From assembly GCF_003790525.1 (NCBI RefSeq), contig NZ_CP033635.1: a stretch of 64,000 nt of DNA; one strand, written 5' to 3'. The stretch's first letter is position 1. Each line of letters starts with the position of its first letter. The stretch comes from Escherichia coli. GTDB lineage: Bacteria; Pseudomonadota; Gammaproteobacteria; Enterobacterales; Enterobacteriaceae. Below, piece by piece: positions 20,001 through 47,518 of the stretch. The position numbers and the translations under genes were made by a program. Under the pieces are notes generated by a model, which saw only the letters and a program-made list of their open reading frames with translations, had not been told where the DNA came from and did not search any database.

Positions 20001-20019
20001 CCATCAGCCCGGTCTTGAA

Positions 20020-20051
20020 GGCCTGATAAGACGCGTGAGCGTCGCATCAGG
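20020..20051. repeat. REP element between cysI and cysH
   Basis: GCCTGATAAGACGCGTGAGCGTCGCATCAGGC palindromic unit. Confidence 0.6.
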
Positions 20052-20073
20052 CAAGGCAAACAGTGAGGAATCT

Positions 20074-20808: not shown

Positions 20809-21072
20809 ATATTGCCGGATAAATTAAACGCCTCTGTCAGAAATGATGGGGGCGTTTTTATTTTGCGAGCAGCATTCCTGATTTTAAACGTGAACGTCGT
20901 TGGAAGAATTAACAGGTATAGAATGGCGTTGGGTGCTTGAGGCTGTCTGGCGTTAAGCATTCGCGAGGTTCCAGATGGACAAAAGCCCCAGGCGATATTT
21001 CTATCAACCTGAGGCCAGCGTTCGAACCCAAACAATTCGAATGTTAGTCTCTTCTTTGCAGGGAGGCAAGAC

Positions 21073-21225
21073 ATGCTGACAAAATATGCCCTTGTGGCAA
21101 TCATAGTGCTGTGTTTTACAGTACTGGGATTCACGCTGATGGTAGGCGACTCGTTGTGTGAGTTGAGTATCAGAGAACGTGGTATGGAGTTTAAGGCGGT
21201 TCTCGCTTACGAATCGAAGAAGTAG
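21073..21225 (+). CDS. Hok/Gef-family type I toxin (50 aa)
   Basis: Below the ORF-track length cutoff; ATG at 21073 preceded by GGGAGG (21061-21066); [50 protein letters not shown] has the Hok family TM helix plus LCE...AYES signature. Confidence 0.7.
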
Positions 21226-21246: not shown

Positions 21247-22585
21247 CATAAGCGCTAACTTAAGGGTTGTGGTATTACGCCTGATATGATTTAACGTGCC
21301 GATGAATTACTCTCACGATAACTGGTCAGCAATTCTGGCCCATATTGGTAAGCCCGAAGAACTGGATACTTCGGCACGTAATGCCGGGGCTCTAACCCGC
21401 CGCCGCGAAATTCGTGATGCTGCAACTCTGCTACGTCTGGGGCTGGCTTACGGCCCCGGGGGGATGTCATTACGTGAAGTCACTGCATGGGCTCAGCTCC
21501 ATGACGTTGCAACATTATCTGACGTGGCTCTCCTGAAGCGGCTGCGGAATGCCGCCGACTGGTTTGGCATACTTGCCGCACAAACACTTGCTGTACGCGC
21601 CGCAGTTACGGGTTGTACAAGCGGAAAGAGATTGCGTCTTGTCGATGGAACAGCAATCAGTGCGCCCGGGGGCGGCAGCGCTGAATGGCGACTACATATG
21701 GGATATGATCCTCATACCTGTCAGTTCACTGATTTTGAGCTAACCGACAGCAGAGACGCTGAACGGCTGGACCGATTTGCGCAAACGGCAGACGAGATAC
21801 GCATTGCTGACCGGGGATTCGGTTCGCGTCCCGAATGTATCCGCTCACTTGCTTTTGGAGAAGCTGATTATATCGTCCGGGTTCACTGGCGAGGATTGCG
21901 CTGGTTAACTGCAGAAGGAATGCGCTTTGACATGATGGGTTTTCTGCGCGGGCTGGATTGCGGTAAGAACGGTGAAACCACTGTAATGATAGGCAATTCA
22001 GGTAATAAAAAAGCCGGAGCTCCCTTTCCGGCACGTCTCATTGCCGTATCACTTCCTCCCGAAAAAGCATTAATCAGTAAAACCCGACTGCTCAGCGAGA
22101 ATCGTCGAAAAGGACGAGTAGTTCAGGCGGAAACGCTGGAAGCAGCGGGCCATGTGCTATTGCTAACATCATTACCGGAAGATGAATATTCAGCAGAGCA
22201 AGTGGCTGATTGTTACCGTCTGCGATGGCAAATTGAACTGGCTTTTAAGCGGCTCAAAAGTTTGCTGCACCTGGATGCTTTGCGTGCAAAGGAACCTGAA
22301 CTCGCGAAAGCGTGGATATTTGCTAATCTACTCGCCGCATTTTTAATTGACGACATAATCCAGCCATCGCTGGATTTCCCCCCCAGAAGTGCCGGATCCG
22401 AAAAGAAGAACTAACTCGTTGTGGAGAATAACAAAAATGGTCATCTGGAGCTTACAGGTGGCCATTCGTGGGACAGTATCCCTGACAGCCTACAAAACGC
22501 AATTGAAGAACGCGAGGCATCGTCTTAACGAGGCACCGAGGCGTCGCATTCTTCAGATGGTTCAACCCTTAAGTTAGCGCTTATG
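21247..22585 (+). mobile_element. IS186 insertion sequence (about 1339 bp)
   Basis: 23-bp terminal inverted repeats CATAAGCGCTAACTTAAGGGTTG (21247-21269) and its reverse complement (22563-22585); encodes IS186-type transposase; flanked by a duplicated GGGTAAAACC-type target. Confidence 0.9.
21302..22414 (+). CDS. insL: IS186 transposase (IS4 family)
   Basis: 370 aa from ATG 21302 (MNYSHDNWSAILAHIGKPEEL...); the ORF track starts two codons earlier at a GTG. Confidence 0.9.
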   Translation: MNYSHDNWSAILAHIGKPEELDTSARNAGALTRRREIRDAATLLRLGLAYGPGGMSLREVTAWAQLHDVATLSDVALLKRLRNAADWFGILAAQTLAVRAAVTGCTSGKRLRLVDGTAISAPGGGSAEWRLHMGYDPHTCQFTDFELTDSRDAERLDRFAQTADEIRIADRGFGSRPECIRSLAFGEADYIVRVHWRGLRWLTAEGMRFDMMGFLRGLDCGKNGETTVMIGNSGNKKAGAPFPARLIAVSLPPEKALISKTRLLSENRRKGRVVQAETLEAAGHVLLLTSLPEDEYSAEQVADCYRLRWQIELAFKRLKSLLHLDALRAKEPELAKAWIFANLLAAFLIDDIIQPSLDFPPRSAGSEKKN

Positions 22586-22768: not shown

Positions 22769-25468
22769 ATGCGTAAATATCCTTTAAGTTTACTGAAGGA
22801 TAAAAATATTGTGACTTTTTTTGATTTCTGGGGAAAAACCCGACGCGGCGAGAAAGACGGGGGCGACGACTATCACCTTCTTTGCTGGCATTCGCTGGAT
22901 GTAGCCGCGATGGGCTATTTAATGGTTAAAAGCAATTGCTTCGGACTGGCTGACTATTTTCGTCAATTAGGTTTCGCTGACACGGAGCAGGCAGCACAAT
23001 TTTTCGCCTGGCTGCTGTGCTGGCACGATATTGGAAAATTTGCCCGCTCTTTTCAGCAACTTTACCTGCACCCACAACTCAAGGTCCCGGAAGGCGCAAG
23101 AAAGAATTACGAAAAGATCTCTCATTCAACGCTGGGCTACTGGTTGTGGAACCATTATTTAAGTGAATGTCAGGAGTTGCTTCCTTCATCTTCACTCTCT
23201 CCGCGCAAACTTAAACGGGTGATGGAGATGTGGATGCCCATGACTACCGGGCATCATGGTCGACCCCCTGAGCGTATGGATGAACTGGATAATTTTCTGC
23301 CTGAAGACAAAGGTGCCGCACGAGATTTTCTCCTTGCAATCAAGGTACTGTTTCCGCTCATAGAGATCCCCACATTCTGGGATGATGACGAGGGCGTTGA
23401 ACTTATAAAACAACTTTCCTGGTATATCTCTGCAACCGTCGTACTTGCAGACTGGACGGGATCGTCAACGCGATATTTTCCACGCGTCGCACAGACAATG
23501 GATATTGAAGATTACTGGCAGAAAACTTTAGTTCAGGCTCAAAACGCCTTAACCGTCTTTCCTCCAAAAGCAGAAAGCGCGCCTTTCACCGGAATTAATA
23601 CGCTGTTTCCTTTTATTGAGAATCCGACACCGCTACAGCAAAAGGTGCTGGATCTGGATATCAGCCAGCCGGGACCACAGTTATTTATTCTGGAGGATGT
23701 AACCGGCGCAGGTAAAACAGAAGCGGCGCTTATCCTGGCGCACAGGTTGATGGCTGCGGGGAAAGCGCAGGGTTTGTTTTTTGGCCTGCCAACAATGGCA
23801 ACGGCCAATGCCATGTACGATCGACTGGTCAAAACCTGGCTTGCTTTCTATTCGCCAGAGTCCCGCCCCAGCCTGGTGCTGGCACACAGTGCCCGAACAT
23901 TAATGGACCGCTTTAATGAATCACTCTGGTCCGGTGATTTAGTCGGGTCAGAAGAACCGGATGAACAAACGTTCAGTCAGGGATGTGCGGCCTGGTTTGC
24001 CGACAGTAACAAGAAGGCGCTACTGGCTGAAATTGGCGTCGGCACGCTGGATCAGGCGATGATGGCTGTGATGCCGTTCAAACATAATAATCTGCGGCTT
24101 CTGGGACTGAGTAACAAAATCCTGCTGGCTGATGAGATCCATGCCTGTGACGCTTACATGTCATGCATTCTTGAAGGGCTGATCGAGCGGCAGGCGCGTG
24201 GCGGAAACAGCGTCATTTTGCTTTCTGCCACGTTATCTCAACAGCAGCGCGACAAACTCGTTGCTGCCTTTGCGCGTGGTATAGAGGGCCAGCAAGAAGC
24301 TCCGTTCCTGGAAAAGGATGATTACCCCTGGCTGACGCACGTTACGAAATCCGATGTGCATTCACACCGGGTAGCGACGCGCAAAGACGTTGAGCGCAGC
24401 GTGAGTGTGGGTTGGCTTCATAGCGAACAAGAGTGTATTGCGCGTATCGCATCGGCGGTAAGTCAGGGGAAATGTATCGCCTGGATCCGAAATTCTGTCG
24501 ATGACGCCATCCAGGTTCATCGTCAGTTACTTGCCCGCGGCGTCATTCCTGCTTCCAGCCTTTCACTTTTTCATAGCCGCTTTGCTTTTAGCGATCGCCA
24601 GCGAATTGAAACGGAGACGCTGGCACGCTTTGGTAAAGAAGACTGTTCACAGCGTGCCGGAAAAGTCCTCATTTGTACTCAAGTCCTGGAGCAGAGCGTT
24701 GACTGCGACCTGGACGAAATGATTTCCGACCTTGCCCCTGTTGATTTACTGATCCAGCGAGCAGGGCGATTACAGCGACATATCCGCGATATGAATGGCC
24801 AGTTAAAGCGTGACGGTAAAGACGAGCGTCACCCTCCTGAATTGCTGATTCTGGCCCCCGTCTGGGACGACTCTCCGGGTGACGAATGGTTTGGCAGTGC
24901 CATGCGTAACAGTGCATTTGTCTATCCCGATCATGGGCGAATCTGGCTGACGCAGCGTGTGCTGCGTGAGCAAGGTGCTATTCAGATGCCACACTCAGCC
25001 CGGCTTCTGATTGAATCAGTCTACGGTGAGGACGTAGTAATGCCGGAAGGGTTTGCCCGCAGCGAGCAGGAGCAAGTGGGCAAATATTACTGCGATCGCG
25101 CAATGGCTAAAAAGTTTGTACTGAACTTCAGGCCCGGCTATGCCGCCAATATCAACGATTACCTCCCGGAAAAACTGTCGACACGTCTGGCTGAAGAGTC
25201 TGTTTCCCTGTGGCTGGCTACCTGTATTGACGGTGTGGTGAAGCCTTATGCCACAGGTGCACACGCATGGGAAATGAGCGTTGTCAGAGTGCGCCGAAGC
25301 TGGTGGAAAAAACATCGGGATGAGTTTTCTTTACTGGAAGGGGATGCGTTCAGGCAGTGGTGCGTTGAACAGCGGCATGATCCGGAGATGGCAAACGTGA
25401 TTTTAGTCACCGATGACGAAAGTTGTGGGTATTCGGCTACGGAGGGATTGATTGGCAAGGTTGGTTGA
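22769..25468 (+). CDS. cas3: Cas3 helicase-nuclease (type I-E)
   Basis: 899 aa; N-terminal HD region and superfamily-2 helicase motifs (GAGKTEAA, DEIH); first gene of the cas cluster. Confidence 0.9.
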   Translation: MRKYPLSLLKDKNIVTFFDFWGKTRRGEKDGGDDYHLLCWHSLDVAAMGYLMVKSNCFGLADYFRQLGFADTEQAAQFFAWLLCWHDIGKFARSFQQLYLHPQLKVPEGARKNYEKISHSTLGYWLWNHYLSECQELLPSSSLSPRKLKRVMEMWMPMTTGHHGRPPERMDELDNFLPEDKGAARDFLLAIKVLFPLIEIPTFWDDDEGVELIKQLSWYISATVVLADWTGSSTRYFPRVAQTMDIEDYWQKTLVQAQNALTVFPPKAESAPFTGINTLFPFIENPTPLQQKVLDLDISQPGPQLFILEDVTGAGKTEAALILAHRLMAAGKAQGLFFGLPTMATANAMYDRLVKTWLAFYSPESRPSLVLAHSARTLMDRFNESLWSGDLVGSEEPDEQTFSQGCAAWFADSNKKALLAEIGVGTLDQAMMAVMPFKHNNLRLLGLSNKILLADEIHACDAYMSCILEGLIERQARGGNSVILLSATLSQQQRDKLVAAFARGIEGQQEAPFLEKDDYPWLTHVTKSDVHSHRVATRKDVERSVSVGWLHSEQECIARIASAVSQGKCIAWIRNSVDDAIQVHRQLLARGVIPASSLSLFHSRFAFSDRQRIETETLARFGKEDCSQRAGKVLICTQVLEQSVDCDLDEMISDLAPVDLLIQRAGRLQRHIRDMNGQLKRDGKDERHPPELLILAPVWDDSPGDEWFGSAMRNSAFVYPDHGRIWLTQRVLREQGAIQMPHSARLLIESVYGEDVVMPEGFARSEQEQVGKYYCDRAMAKKFVLNFRPGYAANINDYLPEKLSTRLAEESVSLWLATCIDGVVKPYATGAHAWEMSVVRVRRSWWKKHRDEFSLLEGDAFRQWCVEQRHDPEMANVILVTDDESCGYSATEGLIGKVG

Positions 25469-31426: not shown

Positions 31427-32797
31427 GTGTTCCCTGCGCCAGCGGGGATAAACCGGTGACCATAAGGGCATTTCATACTGCCTTGCTGTGTTCCCTGCGC
31501 CAGCGGGGATAAACCGGTGAACGTGACAACGCCCGCGACAGAAACGTCGTGTTCCCTGCGCCAGCGGGGATAAACCGGGAAGAAGCGGTAAAGCGGGTTC
31601 CAGTTCAGCGTGTTCCCTGCGCCAGCGGGGATAAACCGAAATTAATTTCGAAACGGGCGTTGATGGTGAAGTGTTCCCTGCGCCAGCGGGGATAAACCGG
31701 CTGGCGCACCTTACGCAAAAATAGACGTAAAGTGTTCCCTGCGCCAGCGGGGATAAACCGCCAGGGAGCGAAGCTGTGGCCATGCTGAAAGGGTGTTCCC
31801 TGCGCCAGCGGGGATAAACCGGGGTTCTATTTCCTCGGGATTTGCCGACACGCGTGTTCCCTGCGCCAGCGGGGATAAACCGGTCAACGCTGGTCAGGCG
31901 TGGTACTTCCTCCGGTGTTCCCTGCGCCAGCGGGGATAAACCGGCTGCCGCGCTTTCGGTGTGGGAGCAGTATGAGTGTTCCCTGCGCCAGCGGGGATAA
32001 ACCGAAACTCCGTGGTGTAGTGCGTTTGTTGGTGCGGTGTTCCCTGCGCCAGCGGGGATAAACCGTTGGTATTAACGGGAATGTAGTCACTCCAGGAGTG
32101 TTCCCTGCGCCAGCGGGGATAAACCGGCGATCGTATTTTCCGCTACGTCGCTCAAATGGTGTTCCCTGCGCCAGCGGGGATAAACCGTCGTTGATGGTGT
32201 GATGAGTGTACAAAAAAAAGTGTTCCCTGCGCCAGCGGGGATAAACCGACGACTGAATCCGGCGAGGCTATCAACTGGCCGTGTTCCCTGCGCCAGCGGG
32301 GATAAACCGCCGCACACGTCGAGCTGGTGGGGATTAATGCTGTGTTCCCTGCGCCAGCGGGGATAAACCGCAGTAAACGTTCGCGCGTTCTCGCGCTCAC
32401 GAGTGTTCCCTGCGCCAGCGGGGATAAACCCTCTGTGTATTCGCTACCAGCCAGCACCGGTACGTGTTCCCTGCGCCAGCGGGGATAAACCGCAGGGTAA
32501 CTGGCTGCTCCTCAACCATTCCGCGTGTTCCCCGCGCCAGCGGGGATAAACCGGGGTTTTAGCGACCGGACCAGAGTACGCAACAGTGTTCCCCGCGCCA
32601 GCGGGGATAAACCGTTGCGCCTTAAGTTCCTTAACTTCCTCTGTATGTGTTCCCCGCGCCAGCGGGGATAAACCGGGAGTGATGAATTGGAAGTAACGGA
32701 TAACCGCGTGTTCCCTGCGCCAGCGGGGATAAACCGGACGCACTGGATGCGATGATGGATATCACTTAGAGTTCCCCCCGCCCCTGCGGTAGAACTC
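31427..32797 (+). CRISPR. type I-E CRISPR array: 23 repeats of 29 bp (last one degenerate), 22 spacers of 32 bp, period 61 bp
   Basis: Repeat GTGTTCCCTGCGCCAGCGGGGATAAACCG starting at 31427, 31488, 31549 ... 32708 (every 61 bp); degenerate terminal repeat GAGTTCCCCCCGCCCCTGCGGTAGAACTC at 32769-32797. Confidence 0.95.
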
Positions 32798-41684: not shown

Positions 41685-42824
41685 ATGAGCGCGGGAAGCC
41701 CAAAATTCACCGTTCGCCGCATTGCGGCTTTGTCACTGGTTTCGCTATGGCTGGCAGGCTGTTCTGACACTTCAAATCCACCGGCCCCGGTCAGCTCCGT
41801 TAATGGCAATGCGCCTGCAAATACCAATTCTGGTATGTTGATTACGCCGCCGCCGAAAATGGGGACGACGTCTACAGCGCAGCAACCGCAAATTCAGCCG
41901 GTACAGCAGCCACAAATTCAGGCCACTCAACAACCGCAAATCCAGCCGGTGCAGCCAGTAGCTCAGCAGCCGGTACAGATGGAAAACGGACGCATCGTCT
42001 ATAACCGTCAGTATGGGAACATTCCGAAAGGCAGTTATAGCGGCAGTACCTATACAGTGAAAAAAGGCGACACACTTTTCTATATCGCCTGGATTACTGG
42101 CAACGATTTCCGTGACCTTGCTCAGCGCAACAATATTCAGGCACCATATGCGCTGAACGTCGGTCAGACCTTACAGGTGGGGAATGCTTCCGGTACGCCA
42201 ATCACTGGCGGAAATGCCATTACCCAGGCCGACGCAGCAGAGCAAGGAGTTGTGATCAAGCCTGCACAAAATTCCACCGTTGCTGTTGCTTCGCAACCGA
42301 CAATTACGTATTCTGAGTCTTCGGGTGAACAGAGTGCTAACAAAATGTTGCCGAACAACAAGCCAACTGCGACCACGGTCACAGCGCCTGTAACGGTACC
42401 AACAGCAAGCACAACCGAGCCGACTGTCAGCAGTACATCAACCAGTACGCCTATCTCCACCTGGCGCTGGCCGACTGAGGGCAAAGTGATCGAAACCTTT
42501 GGCGCTTCTGAGGGGGGCAACAAGGGGATTGATATCGCAGGCAGCAAAGGACAGGCAATTATCGCGACTGCAGATGGCCGCGTTGTTTATGCCGGTAACG
42601 CGCTGCGCGGCTACGGTAATCTGATTATCATCAAACATAATGATGATTACCTGAGTGCCTACGCCCATAACGACACAATGCTGGTCCGGGAACAACAAGA
42701 AGTGAAGGCGGGGCAAAAAATAGCAACCATGGGTAGCACCGGAACCAGTTCAACACGCTTGCATTTTGAAATTCGTTACAAGGGGAAATCCGTAAACCCG
42801 CTGCGTTATTTGCCGCAGCGATAA
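41685..42824 (+). CDS. nlpD: murein hydrolase activator lipoprotein NlpD (LysM plus M23 domains)
   Basis: 379 aa; lipobox LAGCS; Q/P-rich repeats; C-terminal M23 domain. Confidence 0.9.
42286..42314 (+). promoter_or_regulatory. candidate major rpoS promoter inside nlpD (-35 TTGCTT, 17-bp spacer, -10 TATTCT)
   Basis: Hexamers at 42286-42291 and 42309-42314 put the transcription start about 566 nt upstream of the rpoS ATG, consistent with the long rpoS 5' UTR described in the literature. Confidence 0.5.
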
Positions 42825-42886: not shown

Positions 42887-43879
42887 ATGAGTCAGAATAC
42901 GCTGAAAGTTCATGATTTAAATGAAGATGCGGAATTTGATGAGAACGGAGTTGAGGTTTTTGACGAAAAGGCCTTAGTAGAAGAGGAACCCAGTGATAAC
43001 GATTTGGCCGAAGAGGAACTGTTATCGCAGGGAGCCACACAGCGTGTGCTGGACGCGACTCAGCTTTACCTTGGTGAGATTGGTTATTCACCACTGTTAA
43101 CGGCCGAAGAAGAAGTTTATTTTGCGCGTCGCGCACTGCGTGGAGATGTTGCCTCTCGCCGCCGGATGATCGAGAGTAACTTGCGTCTGGTGGTAAAAAT
43201 TGCCCGCCGTTATGGCAATCGTGGTCTGGCGTTGCTGGACCTGATCGAAGAGGGCAACCTGGGGCTGATCCGCGCGGTAGAGAAGTTTGACCCGGAACGT
43301 GGTTTCCGCTTCTCAACATACGCAACCTGGTGGATTCGCCAGACGATCGAACGGGCGATTATGAACCAAACCCGTACTATTCGTTTGCCGATTCACATCG
43401 TAAAGGAGCTGAACGTTTACCTGCGAACCGCACGCGAGTTGTCCCATAAACTGGACCATGAACCAAGTGCGGAAGAGATCGCAGAGCAACTGGATAAGCC
43501 AGTTGATGACGTCAGCCGTATGCTTCGTCTTAACGAGCGCATTACCTCGGTAGACACCCCGCTGGGTGGTGATTCCGAAAAAGCGTTGCTGGACATCCTG
43601 GCCGATGAAAAAGAGAACGGTCCGGAAGATACCACGCAAGATGACGATATGAAGCAGAGCATCGTCAAATGGCTGTTCGAGCTGAACGCCAAACAGCGTG
43701 AAGTGCTGGCACGTCGATTCGGTTTGCTGGGGTACGAAGCGGCAACACTGGAAGATGTAGGTCGTGAAATTGGCCTCACCCGTGAACGTGTTCGCCAGAT
43801 TCAGGTTGAAGGCCTGCGCCGTTTGCGCGAAATCCTGCAAACGCAGGGGCTGAATATCGAAGCGCTGTTCCGCGAATAA
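42887..43879 (+). CDS. rpoS: RNA polymerase sigma factor RpoS (sigma-38)
   Basis: Start taken at [21 protein letters not shown] (330 aa); sigma-70 family regions 2-4. Confidence 0.95.
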
Positions 43880-43894
43880 GTAAGCATCTGTCAG

Positions 43895-43931
43895 AAAGGC
43901 CAGTCTCAAGCGAGGCTGGCCTTTTTCTTTT
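43895..43931 (+). terminator. rho-independent terminator downstream of rpoS
   Basis: 13-bp stem AAAGGCCAGTCTC / GAGGCTGGCCTTT (one mismatch) with a 4-nt loop, followed by TTTCTTTTATTT. Confidence 0.6.
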
Positions 43932-43998
43932 ATTTGGGAGTCGGTGTGTTTTGTCGCCTGGATAAGACACGTCAGCGTCCCACCCGGCAATCAACATC

Positions 43999-44439
43999 CT
44001 ATTTGCTCATCATCTTGCGCACCAGCTGCATAAACAGCTCCTGCTCTTCTGCACTCAAACGCCCCAAAAATTCCTCATCCACACTGTCACCAATCGGTAT
44101 CGCCGCAGCAAGTACCTTTTCTCCTTCGGCAGTCAGCCAGACAAAGCGTCGCCGCTTATCAGCAGAGTCATGTTCTCGTCTGACTAAGCCACGATTTTCC
44201 ATTCGTGCCAACATTTCTGCCAGCGTTGCTTTGGTGCTGACGGCTGCTTCTATCAGTGCCACCTGTTCGATACCAGGTTTATCAGCAATGGCGCGCATCA
44301 CCGCGTACTGTGGTTTGGTCAGATCAGGTAACTCGTGCTGCCAGCGAGCCGTGTGCTGCTGAAAAAGCTGTCGTAACTGATGGAACGCTTTATTTCGTAA
44401 CGCCATGTAAACTCCGGGCAAACTATCTGCCGCTATCAT
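43999..44439 (-). CDS. MarR/SlyA-family transcriptional regulator
   Basis: 146 aa; winged-helix MarR-type sequence; divergent from the decarboxylase cluster. Confidence 0.8.
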   Translation of the reverse strand: MIAADSLPGVYMALRNKAFHQLRQLFQQHTARWQHELPDLTKPQYAVMRAIADKPGIEQVALIEAAVSTKATLAEMLARMENRGLVRREHDSADKRRRFVWLTAEGEKVLAAAIPIGDSVDEEFLGRLSAEEQELFMQLVRKMMSK

Positions 44440-44521
44440 AGCGGTTTTTCAGTGACGAAGAAGATGTTGTTACTTTTCAGCGCTTGCCGCGATGAAAACA
44501 GAGGCGTATTTTAATAATAAC

Positions 44522-44535
44522 GTTCGTATACGAAC
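44522..44535. promoter_or_regulatory. perfect 14-bp palindrome GTTCGTATACGAAC between the MarR-family gene and the decarboxylase operon (candidate operator)
   Basis: Perfect inverted repeat 18 bp upstream of the ATG at 44553. Confidence 0.35.
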
Positions 44536-44552
44536 AATTTAGAGAGTAAGCA

Positions 44553-45146
44553 ATGAAACTGATCGTCGGGATGACAGGGGCTACCGGTGCGCCTCTTGGG
44601 GTGGCATTACTGCAAGCGCTGCGGGAGATGCCGAATGTCGAGACTCATCTGGTGATGTCGAAGTGGGCGAGAACCACCATTGAACTGGAAACGCCTTACA
44701 GCGCTCGCGATGTTGCTGCCCTCGCAGACTTCAGCCATAACCCGGCGGATCAGGCGGCGACCATCTCCTCAGGTTCCTTTCGTACCGACGGCATGATCGT
44801 TATTCCGTGCAGTATGAAAACGCTCGCCGGTATCCGTGCCGGTTACGCCGATGGCCTGGTGGGGCGCGCGGCGGACGTCGTGCTCAAAGAAGGCCGCAAA
44901 CTGGTGCTGGTGCCGCGTGAAATGCCGCTTAGCACAATCCATCTCGAAAATATGCTCGCACTTTCGCGCATGGGCGTGGCGATGGTGCCGCCGATGCCTG
45001 CCTTTTATAACCATCCCGAAACGGTAGATGACATTGTCCACCACGTGGTAGCCCGCGTGCTGGATCAATTTGGCCTCGAACATCCTCACGCCAGGCGCTG
45101 GCAAGGATTGCCGCAGGCCCGGAATTTTTCTCAGGAGAATGAATAA
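44553..45146 (+). CDS. ecdB: UbiX-family flavin prenyltransferase (aromatic acid decarboxylase B subunit)
   Basis: 197 aa; UbiX/Pad1-type N-terminus MKLIVGMTGATGA. Confidence 0.8.
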   Translation: MKLIVGMTGATGAPLGVALLQALREMPNVETHLVMSKWARTTIELETPYSARDVAALADFSHNPADQAATISSGSFRTDGMIVIPCSMKTLAGIRAGYADGLVGRAADVVLKEGRKLVLVPREMPLSTIHLENMLALSRMGVAMVPPMPAFYNHPETVDDIVHHVVARVLDQFGLEHPHARRWQGLPQARNFSQENE

Positions 45147-46573
45147 TGGCATTTGATGATTTACGCAGCTTTTTACAGGCGCTCGACGACCATGGGCAAT
45201 TGCTGAAAATCAGCGAAGAGGTGAACGCAGAACCGGATCTGGCAGCCGCAGCCAACGCCACCGGGCGTATCGGCGACGGCGCGCCCGCGCTGTGGTTTGA
45301 CAATATTCGCGGCTTTACCGATGCCCGCGTGGCGATGAACACCATCGGTTCCTGGCAGAACCACGCGATTTCCCTCGGCCTGCCGCCAAATACCCCGGTT
45401 AAAAAACAGATCGATGAGTTTATCCGCCGCTGGGACAACTTCCCGATAGCCCCGGAACGCCGAGCCAATCCAGCCTGGGCGCAGAACACCGTCGATGGCG
45501 AAAAGATTAACCTGTTCGATATCCTGCCGCTGTTTCGTTTAAACGACGGTGATGGCGGTTTCTATCTCGACAAAGCGTGCGTGGTTTCCCGCGATCCGCT
45601 CGACCCGGATAACTTCGGCAAGCAGAACGTCGGTATCTACCGCATGGAAGTGAAGGGCAAACGTAAGCTCGGCCTGCAACCGGTGCCGATGCACGATATC
45701 GCGCTGCATCTGCATAAAGCGGAAGAGCGCGGTGAAGATCTGCCGATTGCCATCACCCTCGGTAACGATCCGATCATCACCCTGATGGGGGCCACGCCGC
45801 TGAAATATGATCAGTCCGAGTACGAAATGGCGGGCGCGCTGCGCGAAAGTCCGTACCCGATTGCCACCGCCCCACTGACCGGTTTTGATGTACCCTGGGG
45901 CTCGGAAGTGATCCTCGAAGGGGTTATCGAAAGTCGTAAACGTGAAATCGAAGGGCCGTTCGGTGAGTTTACCGGGCACTACTCCGGCGGGCGCAACATG
46001 ACCGTGGTGCGCATCGATAACGTCTCTTATCGCAGCAAACCCATTTTTGAATCGCTCTATCTCGGGATGCCGTGGACGGAAATCGACTACCTGATGGGGC
46101 CAGCCACCTGCGTGCCGCTGTATCAGCAACTGAAAGCCGAGTTCCCGGAAGTGCAGGCGGTAAACGCCATGTACACCCACGGCCTGCTGGCGATTATCTC
46201 CACCAAAAAACGCTACGGTGGCTTTGCCCGCGCGGTGGGCCTCCGTGCGATGACCACGCCACACGGTCTGGGCTATGTGAAGATGGTGATTATGGTCGAT
46301 GAAGACGTTGATCCGTTCAACCTGCCGCAGGTGATGTGGGCGCTCTCTTCGAAAGTGAACCCGGCAGGGGATTTGGTGCAGTTGCCGAATATGTCCGTGC
46401 TGGAACTCGACCCTGGCTCAAGTCCGGCGGGGATCACCGACAAGCTGATTATCGACGCCACCACGCCTGTCGCCCCGGACAACCGTGGTCACTACAGTCA
46501 GCCGGTGGTGGATTTACCGGAAACCAAAGCCTGGGCTGAAAAACTGACCGCTATGCTGGCCGCACGTCAATAA
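45146..46573 (+). CDS. ecdC: UbiD-family aromatic acid decarboxylase (C subunit)
   Basis: 475 aa; UbiD-family size and sequence; start overlaps the upstream stop. Confidence 0.8.
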   Translation: MAFDDLRSFLQALDDHGQLLKISEEVNAEPDLAAAANATGRIGDGAPALWFDNIRGFTDARVAMNTIGSWQNHAISLGLPPNTPVKKQIDEFIRRWDNFPIAPERRANPAWAQNTVDGEKINLFDILPLFRLNDGDGGFYLDKACVVSRDPLDPDNFGKQNVGIYRMEVKGKRKLGLQPVPMHDIALHLHKAEERGEDLPIAITLGNDPIITLMGATPLKYDQSEYEMAGALRESPYPIATAPLTGFDVPWGSEVILEGVIESRKREIEGPFGEFTGHYSGGRNMTVVRIDNVSYRSKPIFESLYLGMPWTEIDYLMGPATCVPLYQQLKAEFPEVQAVNAMYTHGLLAIISTKKRYGGFARAVGLRAMTTPHGLGYVKMVIMVDEDVDPFNLPQVMWALSSKVNPAGDLVQLPNMSVLELDPGSSPAGITDKLIIDATTPVAPDNRGHYSQPVVDLPETKAWAEKLTAMLAARQ

Positions 46574-46583
46574 GGAGAACAAG

Positions 46584-46820
46584 ATGATTTGTCCACGTTG
46601 TGCTGATGAACAGATTGAAGTGATGGCGAAATCGCCGGTAAAAGATGTCTGGACGGTCTACCAGTGCCAGCATTGCCTCTATACCTGGCGCGATACCGAA
46701 CCGCTGCGCCGCACCAGCCGCGAACATTATCCCGAAGCGTTCCGCATGACGCAGAAAGATATTGATGACGCGCCGATGGTGCCGAGCATCCCGCCGCTGC
46801 TGGCGGAAGGTAAGTGTTAA
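46584..46820 (+). CDS. ecdD: decarboxylase small subunit (D subunit, zinc-ribbon-like)
   Basis: 78 aa; CPRC...CQHC motif; 10 bp after the UbiD-like gene. Confidence 0.75.
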   Translation: MICPRCADEQIEVMAKSPVKDVWTVYQCQHCLYTWRDTEPLRRTSREHYPEAFRMTQKDIDDAPMVPSIPPLLAEGKC

Positions 46821-46861
46821 TAAAAAAGTGCCGGGTAGAGGCTTTGCTTTACCCGGCCACG

Positions 46862-47518
46862 TTATTTAATTTTATAAAACGATAACCGTCTGCTTTCCGG
46901 CGAGCCGGTATCAATATAAACCTGATTGGCAAATGTCTGGATGTTATCAAACATCATATGTCCAAAGATAAAACAGTCGGCACCGTTTATTTCTTTTAAC
47001 TCTCCCTTGAATGATTTCTGCACGCGATCAACAGGCCAGAGTAATTCGCTTTCTGCTATTTCTTTACCAAACTGATATTCATCACCCGGATAATCCGCAT
47101 GTGCGATGACATATTTTATTCTGTCGTTAGTGATTTCAATAATATGTGGAAGATTATGAAAACGTAGCAACAGGTCTATTGCTTCTTTTTGTTCCGTATC
47201 ACTTAACTCAAAGAACCAGTCGCCACCGCTGGCAAGCCACATATTGCCATCGCCGGTCGCGAACGCATCCAACGCCATCGCTTCATGGTTGCCTTTAACC
47301 GATGTAAACCAGGGCTGGTTTAACAGGCGCAGCACGTTAAGACTCTCCGGCCCACGATCGATGTTATCGCCTACCGAAATAAGTAAGTCGGTTTCAGGGC
47401 AAAAAGAGAGTTGATGTAAGCGGGATTGTAATAATTGATAGTCACCATGAATATCACCAACGGCCCATATATGGCGATAGTGATGGACATTGATTTTTTG
47501 ATAGCGTGTAGATGGCAT
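46862..47518 (-). CDS. pphB: serine/threonine protein phosphatase 2
   Basis: 218 aa; metallophosphatase motifs GDIHG and GNHE. Confidence 0.85.
   Translation of the reverse strand: MPSTRYQKINVHHYRHIWAVGDIHGDYQLLQSRLHQLSFCPETDLLISVGDNIDRGPESLNVLRLLNQPWFTSVKGNHEAMALDAFATGDGNMWLASGGDWFFELSDTEQKEAIDLLLRFHNLPHIIEITNDRIKYVIAHADYPGDEYQFGKEIAESELLWPVDRVQKSFKGELKEINGADCFIFGHMMFDNIQTFANQVYIDTGSPESRRLSFYKIK

Follow-up and report, generated by a model that had tools for sequence, protein, structure and literature searches.

A probable HosA-regulated hydroxyarylic acid decarboxylase locus between rpoS and pphB in Escherichia coli

Introduction

Genes between rpoS and mutS differ among strains of Escherichia coli, and the mutS-rpoS region is a known recombination hotspot. 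Which genes fill the interval between rpoS and pphB in the present genome, what would they do, and did they arrive there or were they lost from K-12? We addressed these questions in a window of 64,000 nucleotides, the whole stretch of DNA that was analysed.

Results

Gene content of the rpoS-pphB interval

The segment lies between rpoS and pphB, where the preliminary description had put it; both flanking genes exceeded their NCBIfam equivalog cut-offs (Table 1). The window rpoS is 100% identical to the SMS-3-5 copy and 99% identical to those of K-12 and O157. Nucleotide identity between the pphB allele and those of other E. coli is only 87-90%, and the gene has a GC content of about 43%. NCBIfam, Pfam and PDB matches agree with the gene identities first proposed (a MarR-family regulator and UbiX, UbiD and small-subunit proteins), with profile scores far above the chance level. 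The regulator is indeed divergent from the enzyme genes. We conclude with high confidence that the segment is a HosA-regulated, non-oxidative hydroxyarylic acid decarboxylase locus (hosA and ecdBCD) in the O157-type mutS-rpoS arrangement. The ecdBCD operon is also called pad1-yclC-yclD, kpdBCD or vdcBCD.

Table 1. Features of the rpoS-pphB interval and its flanks (positions in the window).
Feature	Position	Strand	Remarks
rpoS (flank)	42887..43879	+	330-aa RefSeq-type start; NCBIfam RpoS 604 bits, cut-off 394
Segment	43880..46861		between rpoS and pphB; MarR-family gene (-), divergent UbiX-like B, UbiD-like C and small zinc-ribbon D (+)
rpoS intrinsic terminator	43893..43926	+	15-bp stem, then T-run; -24.5 kcal/mol, z=-5.9
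Probable degenerate full-length REP	43956..43988	-	between rpoS terminator and hosA stop codon
hosA, MarR-family repressor predicted to respond to 4-hydroxybenzoate	43999..44406	-	PDB 8AGA match, Pfam MarR
Conserved element upstream of hosA, CTATSATAGCSG	44429..44445	-	phylogenetic footprint, 55 aligned intergenic regions
Candidate ecdB promoter	44484..44512	+	-35 TTGCCG (44484-44489), 17-nt spacer, -10 TATTTT (44507-44512)
HosA operator, GTTCGTATACGAAC	44522..44535	.	14-bp perfect palindrome; ends 17 nt before ecdB ATG
ecdB (pad1/kpdB/vdcB type), UbiX-family flavin prenyltransferase, predicted to make prFMN	44553..45146	+	VdcB, PDB 1SBZ
ecdC (yclC/kpdC/vdcC type), UbiD-family prFMN-dependent decarboxylase	45146..46573	+	VdcC, PDB 7AE4
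ecdD (vdcD type), zinc-ribbon activator subunit	46584..46820	+	78 aa; NCBIfam VdcD 121 bits, cut-off 30
Hairpin terminator common to convergent ecdD and pphB	46830..46857	.	11-bp stem
pphB (flank)	46862..47518	-	NCBIfam PRK09968 459 bits, cut-off 332

The regulator is HosA

The open reading frame of the regulator spans 43999-44439 on the minus strand. The RefSeq-type start at 44406 gives a protein of 135 amino acids; a GGAG Shine-Dalgarno sequence lies 5 nt upstream of this ATG, and the O157 and SMS-3-5 annotations in RefSeq have the same 408-nt gene. The protein matched the Pfam MarR family (E=6e-12) and is identical at 132 of 134 residues to PDB 8AGA, 'Transcriptional regulator HosA' (E=1.6e-83). 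Asp110, named as a ligand contact in published HosA work, is present in the alignment with 8AGA. A SlyA identity was rejected, with only 28.9 bits to the NCBIfam SlyA model (cut-off 120). The preliminary description had missed the HosA identity, although the ligand and operator of HosA were previously characterised.

In the HosA and HAD operon system of E. coli UMN026 and EPEC (Roy & Ranjan 2016; bioRxiv 10.1101/2024.04.24.590444), HosA is reported to repress the decarboxylase operon and its own gene, to occupy a palindromic site downstream of where transcription starts, and to be freed from DNA by 4-hydroxybenzoate. By analogy with the UMN026 and EPEC proteins, the window HosA would be released by the same ligand.

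Decarboxylase genes

The ecdB product passed the NCBIfam VdcB model (312 bits, cut-off 290) and UbiX subfamily models, and matched PDB 1SBZ, the Pad1 protein of E. coli O157:H7, over residues 1-197 (E=3.8e-129). The top-scoring model for this subunit, BagM/FevK, reached 344 bits, under its cut-off of 420, and a bagremycin-type identity was set aside. EcdC scored 788.5 bits against NCBIfam VdcC (cut-off 650), carries the Pfam domains UbiD_N, UbiD and UbiD_C, and aligned with ShVdcC (PDB 7AE4) over residues 3-471 (E=3.6e-159; 534 bits). Its motifs NVGIYR (161-166) and EGPFGEF (269-275) correspond in the alignment to NVGTYR and EGPFGEF in ShVdcC. By analogy with Fdc1 and UbiD, we take them to hold the Glu-Arg-Glu triad and the metal ligands. 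EcdD matched chain a of 7AE4, ShdD (E=3.5e-11). Its Cys3, Cys6, Cys28 and Cys31 form two CXXC knuckles at positions identical to the cysteines that bind zinc in ShVdcD (PMC8379154).

Published work on homologues has demonstrated reversible decarboxylation of 4-hydroxybenzoate and vanillate, for which VdcC strictly needs VdcD (PMC8379154); the same activity is reported from Lupa 2005 and 2008. These homologues (ShVdcC, BsVdcC) are 55-60% identical to the window protein and, together with the HosA ligand, suggest that EcdBCD would act on 4-hydroxybenzoate and vanillate. The ecdB stop and ecdC start codons overlap by 1 nt (TAATG), the 10-nt gap between ecdC and ecdD contains GGAG, and one terminator follows ecdD. 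This layout is consistent with co-transcription of the three genes in B-C-D order.

Operator and candidate promoters between hosA and ecdB

The operator GTTCGTATACGAAC occurs once in the window and is kept with 0-2 mismatches in 63/63 hosA-ecdB intergenic regions of other species, from Escherichia to Vibrio. Sequence on either side of this conserved palindrome varies from species to species. The published HosA DNA probe, CAGAGGCGTATTTTAATAATAAC-GTT(T)CGTATACGAAC-AATTAAG... (PMC6261655 supplement), agrees with the window around 44522-44535 in the 14-bp operator and in most of the promoter sequence around it; as printed, the probe has one more T in its bolded site, and it carries a few downstream substitutions.

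The operator starts 9 nt past a conserved -10-like TATTTT. This hexamer and TTGCCG form a candidate ecdB promoter, whose pattern (TTGYC, a 17-nt spacer and TAnnTT) is conserved in 55/55 aligned intergenic regions. A generic sigma-70 scan reported no promoter in the hosA-ecdB intergenic region, so it is conservation that supports the hexamers. Their position fits a HosA site downstream of the transcription start, as reported in published work. Upstream of hosA, the conserved element carries TATGAT on the minus strand (44435-44440), a candidate -10 hexamer for hosA. In the 55 aligned regions, the columns beside this element are unconserved and have no 3-nt periodicity.

A second, distal HosA-like site, GATCGTRYACGAAC, adjoins the -35 and is retained in 31 of the 64 intergenic regions examined. 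It is present in many Klebsiella/Enterobacter-type loci and degenerate in Escherichia, whose hosA-ecdB intergenic region may have lost about 25 nt that included it. HosA control in E. coli could therefore be simpler or leakier than in Klebsiella, Enterobacter and Kluyvera.

Comparison with K-12 and other E. coli

We aligned the segment with K-12 and O157. K-12 shares only the first 46 nt, the rpoS terminator, with homology ending at 43925 and restarting at the pphB stop codon (46862). Between rpoS and pphB, K-12 instead carries a 6.1-kb block of ygbN, ygbM, ygbL, otnK, ltnD and ygbI, so the preliminary description was right that its gene set there (ygbI to ygbN) is a different one. The claim that the region is polymorphic also holds up (PMC4209514): with a carrier defined by at least 80% of the segment, 2,379 of 5,426 complete E. 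coli genomes carry the cluster, and 56%, K-12 included, are without it. Across these genomes we counted 781 cluster-pphB, 1,593 cluster-ygbN and 1,944 rpoS-ygbN junctions.

The window has 'pattern I' (EDL933 type), a class of the mutS-rpoS / o454-nlpD typing scheme (Ewers 2014, PMC4209514), in which ygbN is absent and the cluster directly adjoins pphB and mutS. The segment is 95.3% identical to that of O157:H7 and 100% identical to that of the SMS-3-5 lineage. Within E. coli, cluster alleles diverge by 3-6%, compared with about 1% for rpoS. The GC content of ecdBCD is 56-58%, against about 51% in its neighbours.

The hairpin at 46830-46857 folds at -21.9 kcal/mol on the plus strand (z=-4.6) and at -16.6 kcal/mol, followed by U6, on the minus strand. 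Pattern IV and K-12 genomes lack it in their ecdD-ygbN and ygbI-pphB spacers, and it is specific to the arrangement in which the cluster is next to pphB.

A probable decayed REP inside the segment

A REP-like sequence past the rpoS terminator, noticed earlier and called truncated, proved real. It matches the REP consensus at 27/33 positions with one 1-nt indel and covers the whole REP core, and is thus degenerate and not truncated. Its alignment score was 40, against 15.4 +/- 3.8 for 66-mers from the window (z about 6), and only 0.3% of random window 66-mers scored as high. The minus-strand hairpin folds at -23.8 kcal/mol (z=-4.3). A strict REP pattern search allowing up to 3 mismatches did not match 43956-43988, which lacks the CTAC tail. 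In Escherichia sp. E1V33 this site holds a REP in a better state, and several Citrobacter species have REPs there; the E1V33 orthologue supports a REP origin for the window sequence.

The element had also been called consistent with a recombination junction. This reading is weak, as the K-12 breakpoint (43925/43926) falls about 30 nt before it. With the REP-like element inside the segment, REPs in E1V33 and Citrobacter and a family-wide rpoS-hosA adjacency, the rpoS side looks ancestral.

Conservation of gene order in the family

We compared the locus across species. At 56 of 80 species loci, rpoS and/or mutS lies within 7 kb of the cluster (both at 43/80), and where rpoS is present the orientation is that of the window in 46/51. 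The order rpoS-hosA-ecdBCD-(pphB)-mutS was found in Escherichia sp. E1V33, Citrobacter, Pseudocitrobacter, Enterobacter, Klebsiella, Kluyvera, Leclercia, Kosakonia, Atlantibacter, Franconibacter, Mangrovibacter and others. The cluster proteins diverge in parallel with MutS (Spearman rho 0.56-0.80). Because this order is conserved across genera, we infer that it is ancestral to Enterobacteriaceae and that K-12-type genomes lost the cluster.

Discussion

Could the segment be a horizontally acquired, pathogen-associated island beside rpoS, with the REP-like element as its junction and the K-12 arrangement as the original one? The segment is absent in K-12, the literature speaks of an 'insertion', a 'chimeric sequence' and 'horizontally acquired' DNA, and the allele divergence and raised GC content given above would fit such an origin, as would close homologues on megaplasmids of Pantoea, Rahnella and Chimaeribacter. 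However, neither the gene order shared by many genera nor the parallel divergence from MutS is expected of an island, the REP-like element sits 30 nt inside the segment with an orthologue in cryptic-clade Escherichia, and no integrase, transposase or tRNA was found at the segment borders. There were no genuine E. coli plasmid matches; three E. coli 'plasmid' records are probably mislabelled chromosomes, as their 4.8-4.9 Mb is whole-chromosome size. We consider the island unlikely. Vertical descent at the family level still leaves room for allele exchange within the species, given the 3-6% allele divergence and the recombination hotspot.

The enzymes raise two further alternatives, both of which we regard as improbable. 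The UbiX- and UbiD-like genes might be spare ubiquinone-pathway copies acting on 3-octaprenyl-4-hydroxybenzoate and not on free phenolic acids, and they do belong to these families, with E. coli UbiD structures 2IDB and 5M1C matched at E about 1e-46. But EcdC reaches only 172 bits on the UbiD equivalog PRK10922 (cut-off 788) while passing VdcC, housekeeping UbiD is without the VdcD subunit found in this cluster, the neighbouring repressor would sense free 4-hydroxybenzoate, and most complete E. coli genomes dispense with the cluster; this makes it the most improbable of the alternatives weighed here. A little less remote is a different phenolic acid as the true substrate, such as protocatechuate (AroY type) or gallate (LpdBCD type). 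Substrate ranges overlap in the UbiD family, and co-expressed B and D homologues from Klebsiella and Enterobacter boost the AroY protocatechuate decarboxylase (PMC5779730). Against this, the AroY-type structures 5O3M and 5NY5 gave only 90-99 bits compared with 534 bits for ShVdcC, LpdD has no sequence similarity to VdcD (PMC8379154), and the effector of HosA is 4-hydroxybenzoate.

For a 4-hydroxybenzoate and vanillate decarboxylase under HosA, the following scheme can be proposed. EcdB would make prenylated FMN (prFMN), with which EcdC would reversibly decarboxylate 4-hydroxybenzoate, yielding phenol, and vanillate, yielding guaiacol. The four-cysteine zinc ribbon of EcdD, seated on EcdC, may keep the catalytic Glu-Arg-Glu loops in their active form. 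A HosA dimer on GTTCGTATACGAAC, immediately past the candidate ecdB promoter, would block transcription, and published work has HosA repressing hosA as well. Binding of 4-hydroxybenzoate would take HosA off the DNA and switch the operon on.

The closest known system is the 2.9-kb mutS-rpoS segment of E. coli O157:H7, also pattern I. Its four genes match those of the window in identity, order and orientation, pphB adjoins directly without ygb genes, and the breakpoints against K-12 are the same; its allele differs, and its pphB is only 88.6% identical. This segment and its polymorphism were reportedly described by LeClerc in 1999 and Herbelin in 2000. In UMN026/EPEC-type genomes the gene after the cluster is usually ygbN (pattern IV), whereas in the window it is pphB. 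KpdBCD of Klebsiella pneumoniae and EcdBCD of Enterobacter cloacae are orthologues, and C subunits of other Klebsiella and Enterobacter species have 96-97% protein identity and the same rpoS-mutS location. In these genera pphB is missing, and in some an additional stretch of about 2.6 kb lies between rpoS and the regulator gene.

Further afield, VdcCD/ShdCD of Sedimentibacter hydroxybenzoicus and BsdBCD/YclBCD of Bacillus subtilis share the B-C-D operon logic, and the ERE motif region and D-subunit cysteine positions of VdcCD/ShdCD match the window proteins (PMC8379154). The C subunit of VdcCD/ShdCD is only moderately similar over its full length. The B. subtilis operon is regulated by the LysR-type BsdA, unlike the MarR-type HosA of the window. 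UbiX and UbiD of ubiquinone biosynthesis are of the same two enzyme families and use the same prFMN chemistry; the window cluster differs from them in its D subunit and in its dedicated repressor, predicted to sense 4-hydroxybenzoate, and it is dispensable, as over half of the E. coli genomes show.

All components of the hosA-ecdBCD locus have been described before, and the published work fits the window; the feature is an ordinary one that has its explanation already, and it carries little weight as a discovery. A broader proposal joins two parts: that the order is ancestral, with K-12 and B2 types derived by loss or replacement and 'pathogen-specific, horizontally acquired' a mislabel, and that HosA control in E. 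coli is simpler or leakier. We would give this combination an even chance. Its first part largely restates, with many more genomes, an older view of 'conservation and loss' reportedly put forward by Herbelin in 2000 and Kotewicz in 2003; its second, the loss of the distal site, is a small new regulatory hypothesis.

The locus is useful for annotation and strain typing, as it marks the pattern I mutS-rpoS class and an SMS-3-5-like lineage. The synteny across genera is a mild corrective to papers that call hosA horizontally acquired by pathogens. 4-Hydroxybenzoate arises when parabens and plant phenolics are broken down, and by analogy with the characterised homologues this strain would sense it and convert it to phenol.

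The rpoS-pphB segment carries the hosA-ecdBCD locus

The segment at 43880-46861 fills exactly the interval between the stop codons of rpoS and pphB and contains four genes. NCBIfam labels the three plus-strand proteins as non-oxidative hydroxyarylic acid decarboxylase (HAD) subunits B, C, and D, and Pfam detected MarR, Flavoprotein, and three UbiD domains in the proteins of the segment. These matches, and the flanking rpoS and pphB (with mutS beyond pphB), bear out the preliminary description of a MarR-family regulator beside a UbiX/UbiD/small-subunit cluster. The regulator is also divergent from the decarboxylase genes, as described, and is the only one of the four genes on the minus strand. 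The segment is the hosA-ecdBCD (HAD) locus, arranged in the way already known from O157-type E. coli. The locus is already known, with solved structures and a known ligand and operator, and nothing further is needed for its identity.

The MarR-family protein is HosA, with 132 of 134 residues identical to PDB 8AGA. Orthology to SlyA was rejected (28.9 bits with the SlyA equivalog model, cut-off 120), though the gene is called 'slyA' in early papers. Bagremycin-type BagL and BagM, which headed the NCBIfam matches of the regulator and of the B protein, were also rejected, as each fell under its cut-off, and model scores ruled out a ubiquinone UbiD paralogue.

The B protein is a UbiX-family flavin prenyltransferase and in essence the Pad1 of E. 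coli O157:H7 that has been crystallised (PDB 1SBZ, E=4e-129). Over its whole length, the C protein aligns with the VdcC subunit of the solved VdcCD complex of Sedimentibacter hydroxybenzoicus (ShVdcC, PDB 7AE4, E=4e-159); both the NVGIYR and the EGPFGEF motif are kept. For the D protein the match is ShVdcD, and the D cysteines 3, 6, 28, and 31 fall exactly at the four zinc ligands reported for ShVdcD (PMC8379154). In the work of Marshall et al. (PMC8379154), VdcC without VdcD was inactive; VdcD, a zinc ribbon, forms an integral subunit and steadies the catalytic ERE loops. The VdcCD complex with prFMN decarboxylates 4-hydroxybenzoate and vanillate and is oxygen-sensitive (PMC8379154). The ecdB stop and ecdC start overlap by one base and one strong hairpin follows ecdD, so the three genes would fit a single operon.

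Features of the segment and of the surrounding window
Feature	Position	Strand	Details
hosA	43999-44439 (ORF)	-	RefSeq start in other strains 44406, 135 aa; GGAG 5 nt upstream
ecdB (B subunit)	44553-45146	+	NCBIfam 312 bits, cut-off 290
ecdC (C subunit)	45146-46573	+	NCBIfam 788.5 bits, cut-off 650
ecdD (D subunit)	46584-46820	+	NCBIfam 121 bits, cut-off 30
HosA operator	44522-44535		perfect 14-bp palindrome GTTCGTATACGAAC; 17 nt between its end and ecdB ATG
Candidate ecdB promoter	44484-44512		TTGYC, 17-nt spacer, TAnnTT
Inverted repeat	44429-44445		candidate hosA -10 region (unproven)
Remnant of second HosA-like site	44447-44483		degenerate
REP-like element	43956-43988	-	27/33 REP consensus positions, one extra base
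Breakpoints with K-12	43925/43926; 46862		directly after rpoS terminator; at pphB stop codon
pphB	46862-47518		GC falls to ~43%
Canonical REP	20017-20052	-	1 mismatch to consensus; between cysI and cysH
hok/sok locus	20931-21088; ~21070-21225	+ (20931-21088)	sok RNA: Rfam 111 bits, gathering score 59
IS421 (IS4-like) transposase gene	~21300-22420		frameshifted; between hok and cas3
cas3 start	near 22770		
CRISPR array remnant	32281-32430		2.5 copies, 61-nt period; downstream of cas3
Tandem repeat in nlpD	41880-41955		24 nt, 3.2 copies

HosA operator and candidate promoters

According to bioRxiv 10.1101/2024.04.24.590444, PMC6261655, and PMC6694116, HosA is a repressor of the decarboxylase operon and of its own gene (Roy & Ranjan, Biochemistry 2016, as cited there), which attaches to a palindrome lying downstream of where transcription begins and is freed from DNA by 4-hydroxybenzoate. 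The 14-bp palindrome at 44522-44535 was recognised from the window sequence alone. It occurs once in the window and, with 0-2 mismatches, in all 63 hosA-ecdB intergenic regions examined from other species, where the flanking sequence is variable. The HosA probe in the oligonucleotide tables of PMC6261655, CAGAGGCGTATTTTAATAATAAC-GTT(T)CGTATACGAAC-AATTAAG..., is the window sequence, except that its bolded site is printed with one T more and that a few bases differ further downstream.

The intergenic alignment also revealed a conserved candidate ecdB promoter, the position of which would place the operator ~9 nt after the -10 hexamer. Upstream of hosA, the conserved block CTATSATAGCSG contains a minus-strand TATGAT that is a candidate hosA -10. 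The conserved inverted repeat at 44429-44445 had been flagged as terminator-like on the plus strand. Its arms lack compensatory changes and no gene there requires a terminator; we read it as a candidate hosA -10 region instead.

Of 64 intergenic regions, 31 have two HosA-like sites. The second, GATCGTRYACGAAC, adjoins the ecdB -35, ~73-77 nt before the ATG, in many species of Enterobacter, Klebsiella, Kluyvera, Leclercia, and Pseudocitrobacter (comparison loci L009-L052); further-upstream second sites occur in Pantoea, Mixta, Leminorella, and Vibrio. The Escherichia region has a ~25-nt gap and only a degenerate remnant of this site.

Arrangements of the region in E. coli

In K-12, the rpoS-pphB interval is taken up by a 6.1-kb block of ygbN, ygbM, ygbL, otnK, ltnD, and ygbI, O157:H7 carries the same four genes as the window directly beside pphB, and a third arrangement has the cluster and the ygb block together. 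Ewers et al. (PMC4209514) distinguish patterns I (EDL933), II (MG1655), III (CFT073, B2), and IV (E2348/69), and trace the mutS-rpoS polymorphism to LeClerc 1999, Herbelin 2000, and Culham & Wood 2000. The window belongs to pattern I. In a survey of 5,426 complete E. coli genomes, 2,379 contained 80% or more of the segment. The cluster-pphB junction of pattern I, as in the window, was detected in 781, the cluster-ygbN junction of pattern IV in 1,593, and the K-12-type rpoS-ygbN junction (pattern II) in 1,944. The K-12 alignment and these counts thus uphold the preliminary view that K-12 has a different gene set and that the region is polymorphic.

In pattern I, the 41-nt spacer between ecdD and pphB contains a hairpin of its own that neither pattern IV spacer has. 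We therefore rejected the idea that pattern I arose from pattern IV simply by loss of the ygb genes; the two are not linked by one clean deletion.

The preliminary description had also called a truncated REP-like sequence consistent with a recombination junction. The REP-like element itself is present: it scores ~6 SD above random 66-mers from the window and forms a strong hairpin (-23.8 kcal/mol, z=-4.3). A strict consensus search of the window did not return it, the sole match being the canonical REP between cysI and cysH, the only one in the 64 kb. The element spans the full REP core, and thus appears decayed, not truncated. Measured from the K-12 breakpoint, it sits 30 nt into the segment. 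A better-preserved REP occupies the corresponding site in Escherichia sp. E1V33, where several Citrobacter species have one or two. A role as a recombination junction in this genome is unsupported.

Further variants were observed. At the K-12 breakpoint (L001, 12047-12055), a 9-nt filler, CTGTGCACA, lies between the rpoS and ygbN terminators and matches neither the cluster-bearing arrangement nor the pattern IV ecdD-ygbN spacer. In E. coli SJ3 (L003, 7174-9255), an IS91-family element removed pcm, nlpD, rpoS, hosA, ecdB, and most of ecdC and truncated surE, leaving the last 255 nt of ecdC and ecdD adjoining ygbN; this strain would lack rpoS. Some pattern I genomes have an extra gene between pphB and mutS, including Escherichia sp. 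E1V33 (L008) and the river isolate LP26-E1-261 (L004, 12665-13528), where it is annotated as a tetratricopeptide-repeat protein, a further variant of the mutS-rpoS region.

The window and E. coli SMS-3-5 share 100% identity from pcm to mutS. Divergence from other E. coli lineages increases across the region, with nucleotide identities of 97.4-99.5% for rpoS (~99% to K-12, O157, and pattern IV), 94.6-98.3% for the cluster genes, 87-90% for pphB (K-12, O157, and pattern IV alleles), and 94.8-95.5% for mutS. This divergence fits the known recombination hotspot. Among 80 species loci, pphB was found only in Escherichia, Pseudocitrobacter, and one Klebsiella (at 61%), and the window copy appears to be either a foreign allele or an old one that has diverged deeply.

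Other features of the window

The first 25 kb of the window perfectly match strain CM2, which has an annotated Hok/Gef family gene at the chromosomal hok/sok toxin-antitoxin locus and shares the frameshifted IS421 gene. SMS-3-5 appears to lack the IS421 gene, as it covers only 95% of these 25 kb, in two pieces. The short CRISPR remnant has a type I-E-like repeat, GTGTTCCCTGCGCCAGCGGGGATAAACCG, and the tandem repeat encodes QQPQIQPV-type linker repeats of NlpD.

Cross-genus synteny and origin of the cluster

We scanned one genome per species and found 80 loci with close EcdC relatives (88-99% protein identity). In 56 of these, rpoS and/or mutS lay within 7 kb of the cluster (both in 43), and 46 of the 51 loci with rpoS had the order nlpD-rpoS-hosA-ecdBCD-...-mutS, as in the window. 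The cluster is inverted in Salmonella arizonae, Salmonella diarizonae, and Phytobacter, and is found at other sites in Pantoea, Erwinia, Rahnella, Vibrio, and others, sometimes on megaplasmids. Across species, the identities of HosA, EcdB, EcdC, and EcdD to the window proteins correlate with that of MutS (rho 0.56-0.80).

EcdC is unusually conserved (L007-L086): its median identity to the window protein is 96.5%, whereas MutS and NlpD of these genomes have medians of 93.4% and 79%. The Vibrio salinus protein is still 88% identical, and 91% was reached in a record labelled as the alphaproteobacterium Martelella alba, a record that could stem from transfer or contamination. The hosA-like gene lies directly against ecdC in about a dozen species (L043, L054, L056, L065, L066, L072, L075-L077, L079, L085, L086), leaving no space for an intervening ecdB; these clusters presumably depend on a UbiX encoded elsewhere.

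We rejected a mobile element: no tRNA genes were detected in the 64-kb window, none of the segment's ORFs encodes a transposase or integrase, and there were no mobility genes at its borders, no Rfam match in the segment, and no genuine plasmid copy of the cluster in E. coli. An ancestral arrangement contradicts descriptions of hosA as horizontally acquired (bioRxiv 10.1101/2024.04.24.590444) and agrees with Herbelin 2000, as far as its title, "Gene conservation and loss", indicates. The simplest reading is that rpoS-hosA-ecdBCD-mutS is ancestral in Enterobacteriaceae and that the cluster was lost or replaced in those E. coli lineages that lack it.
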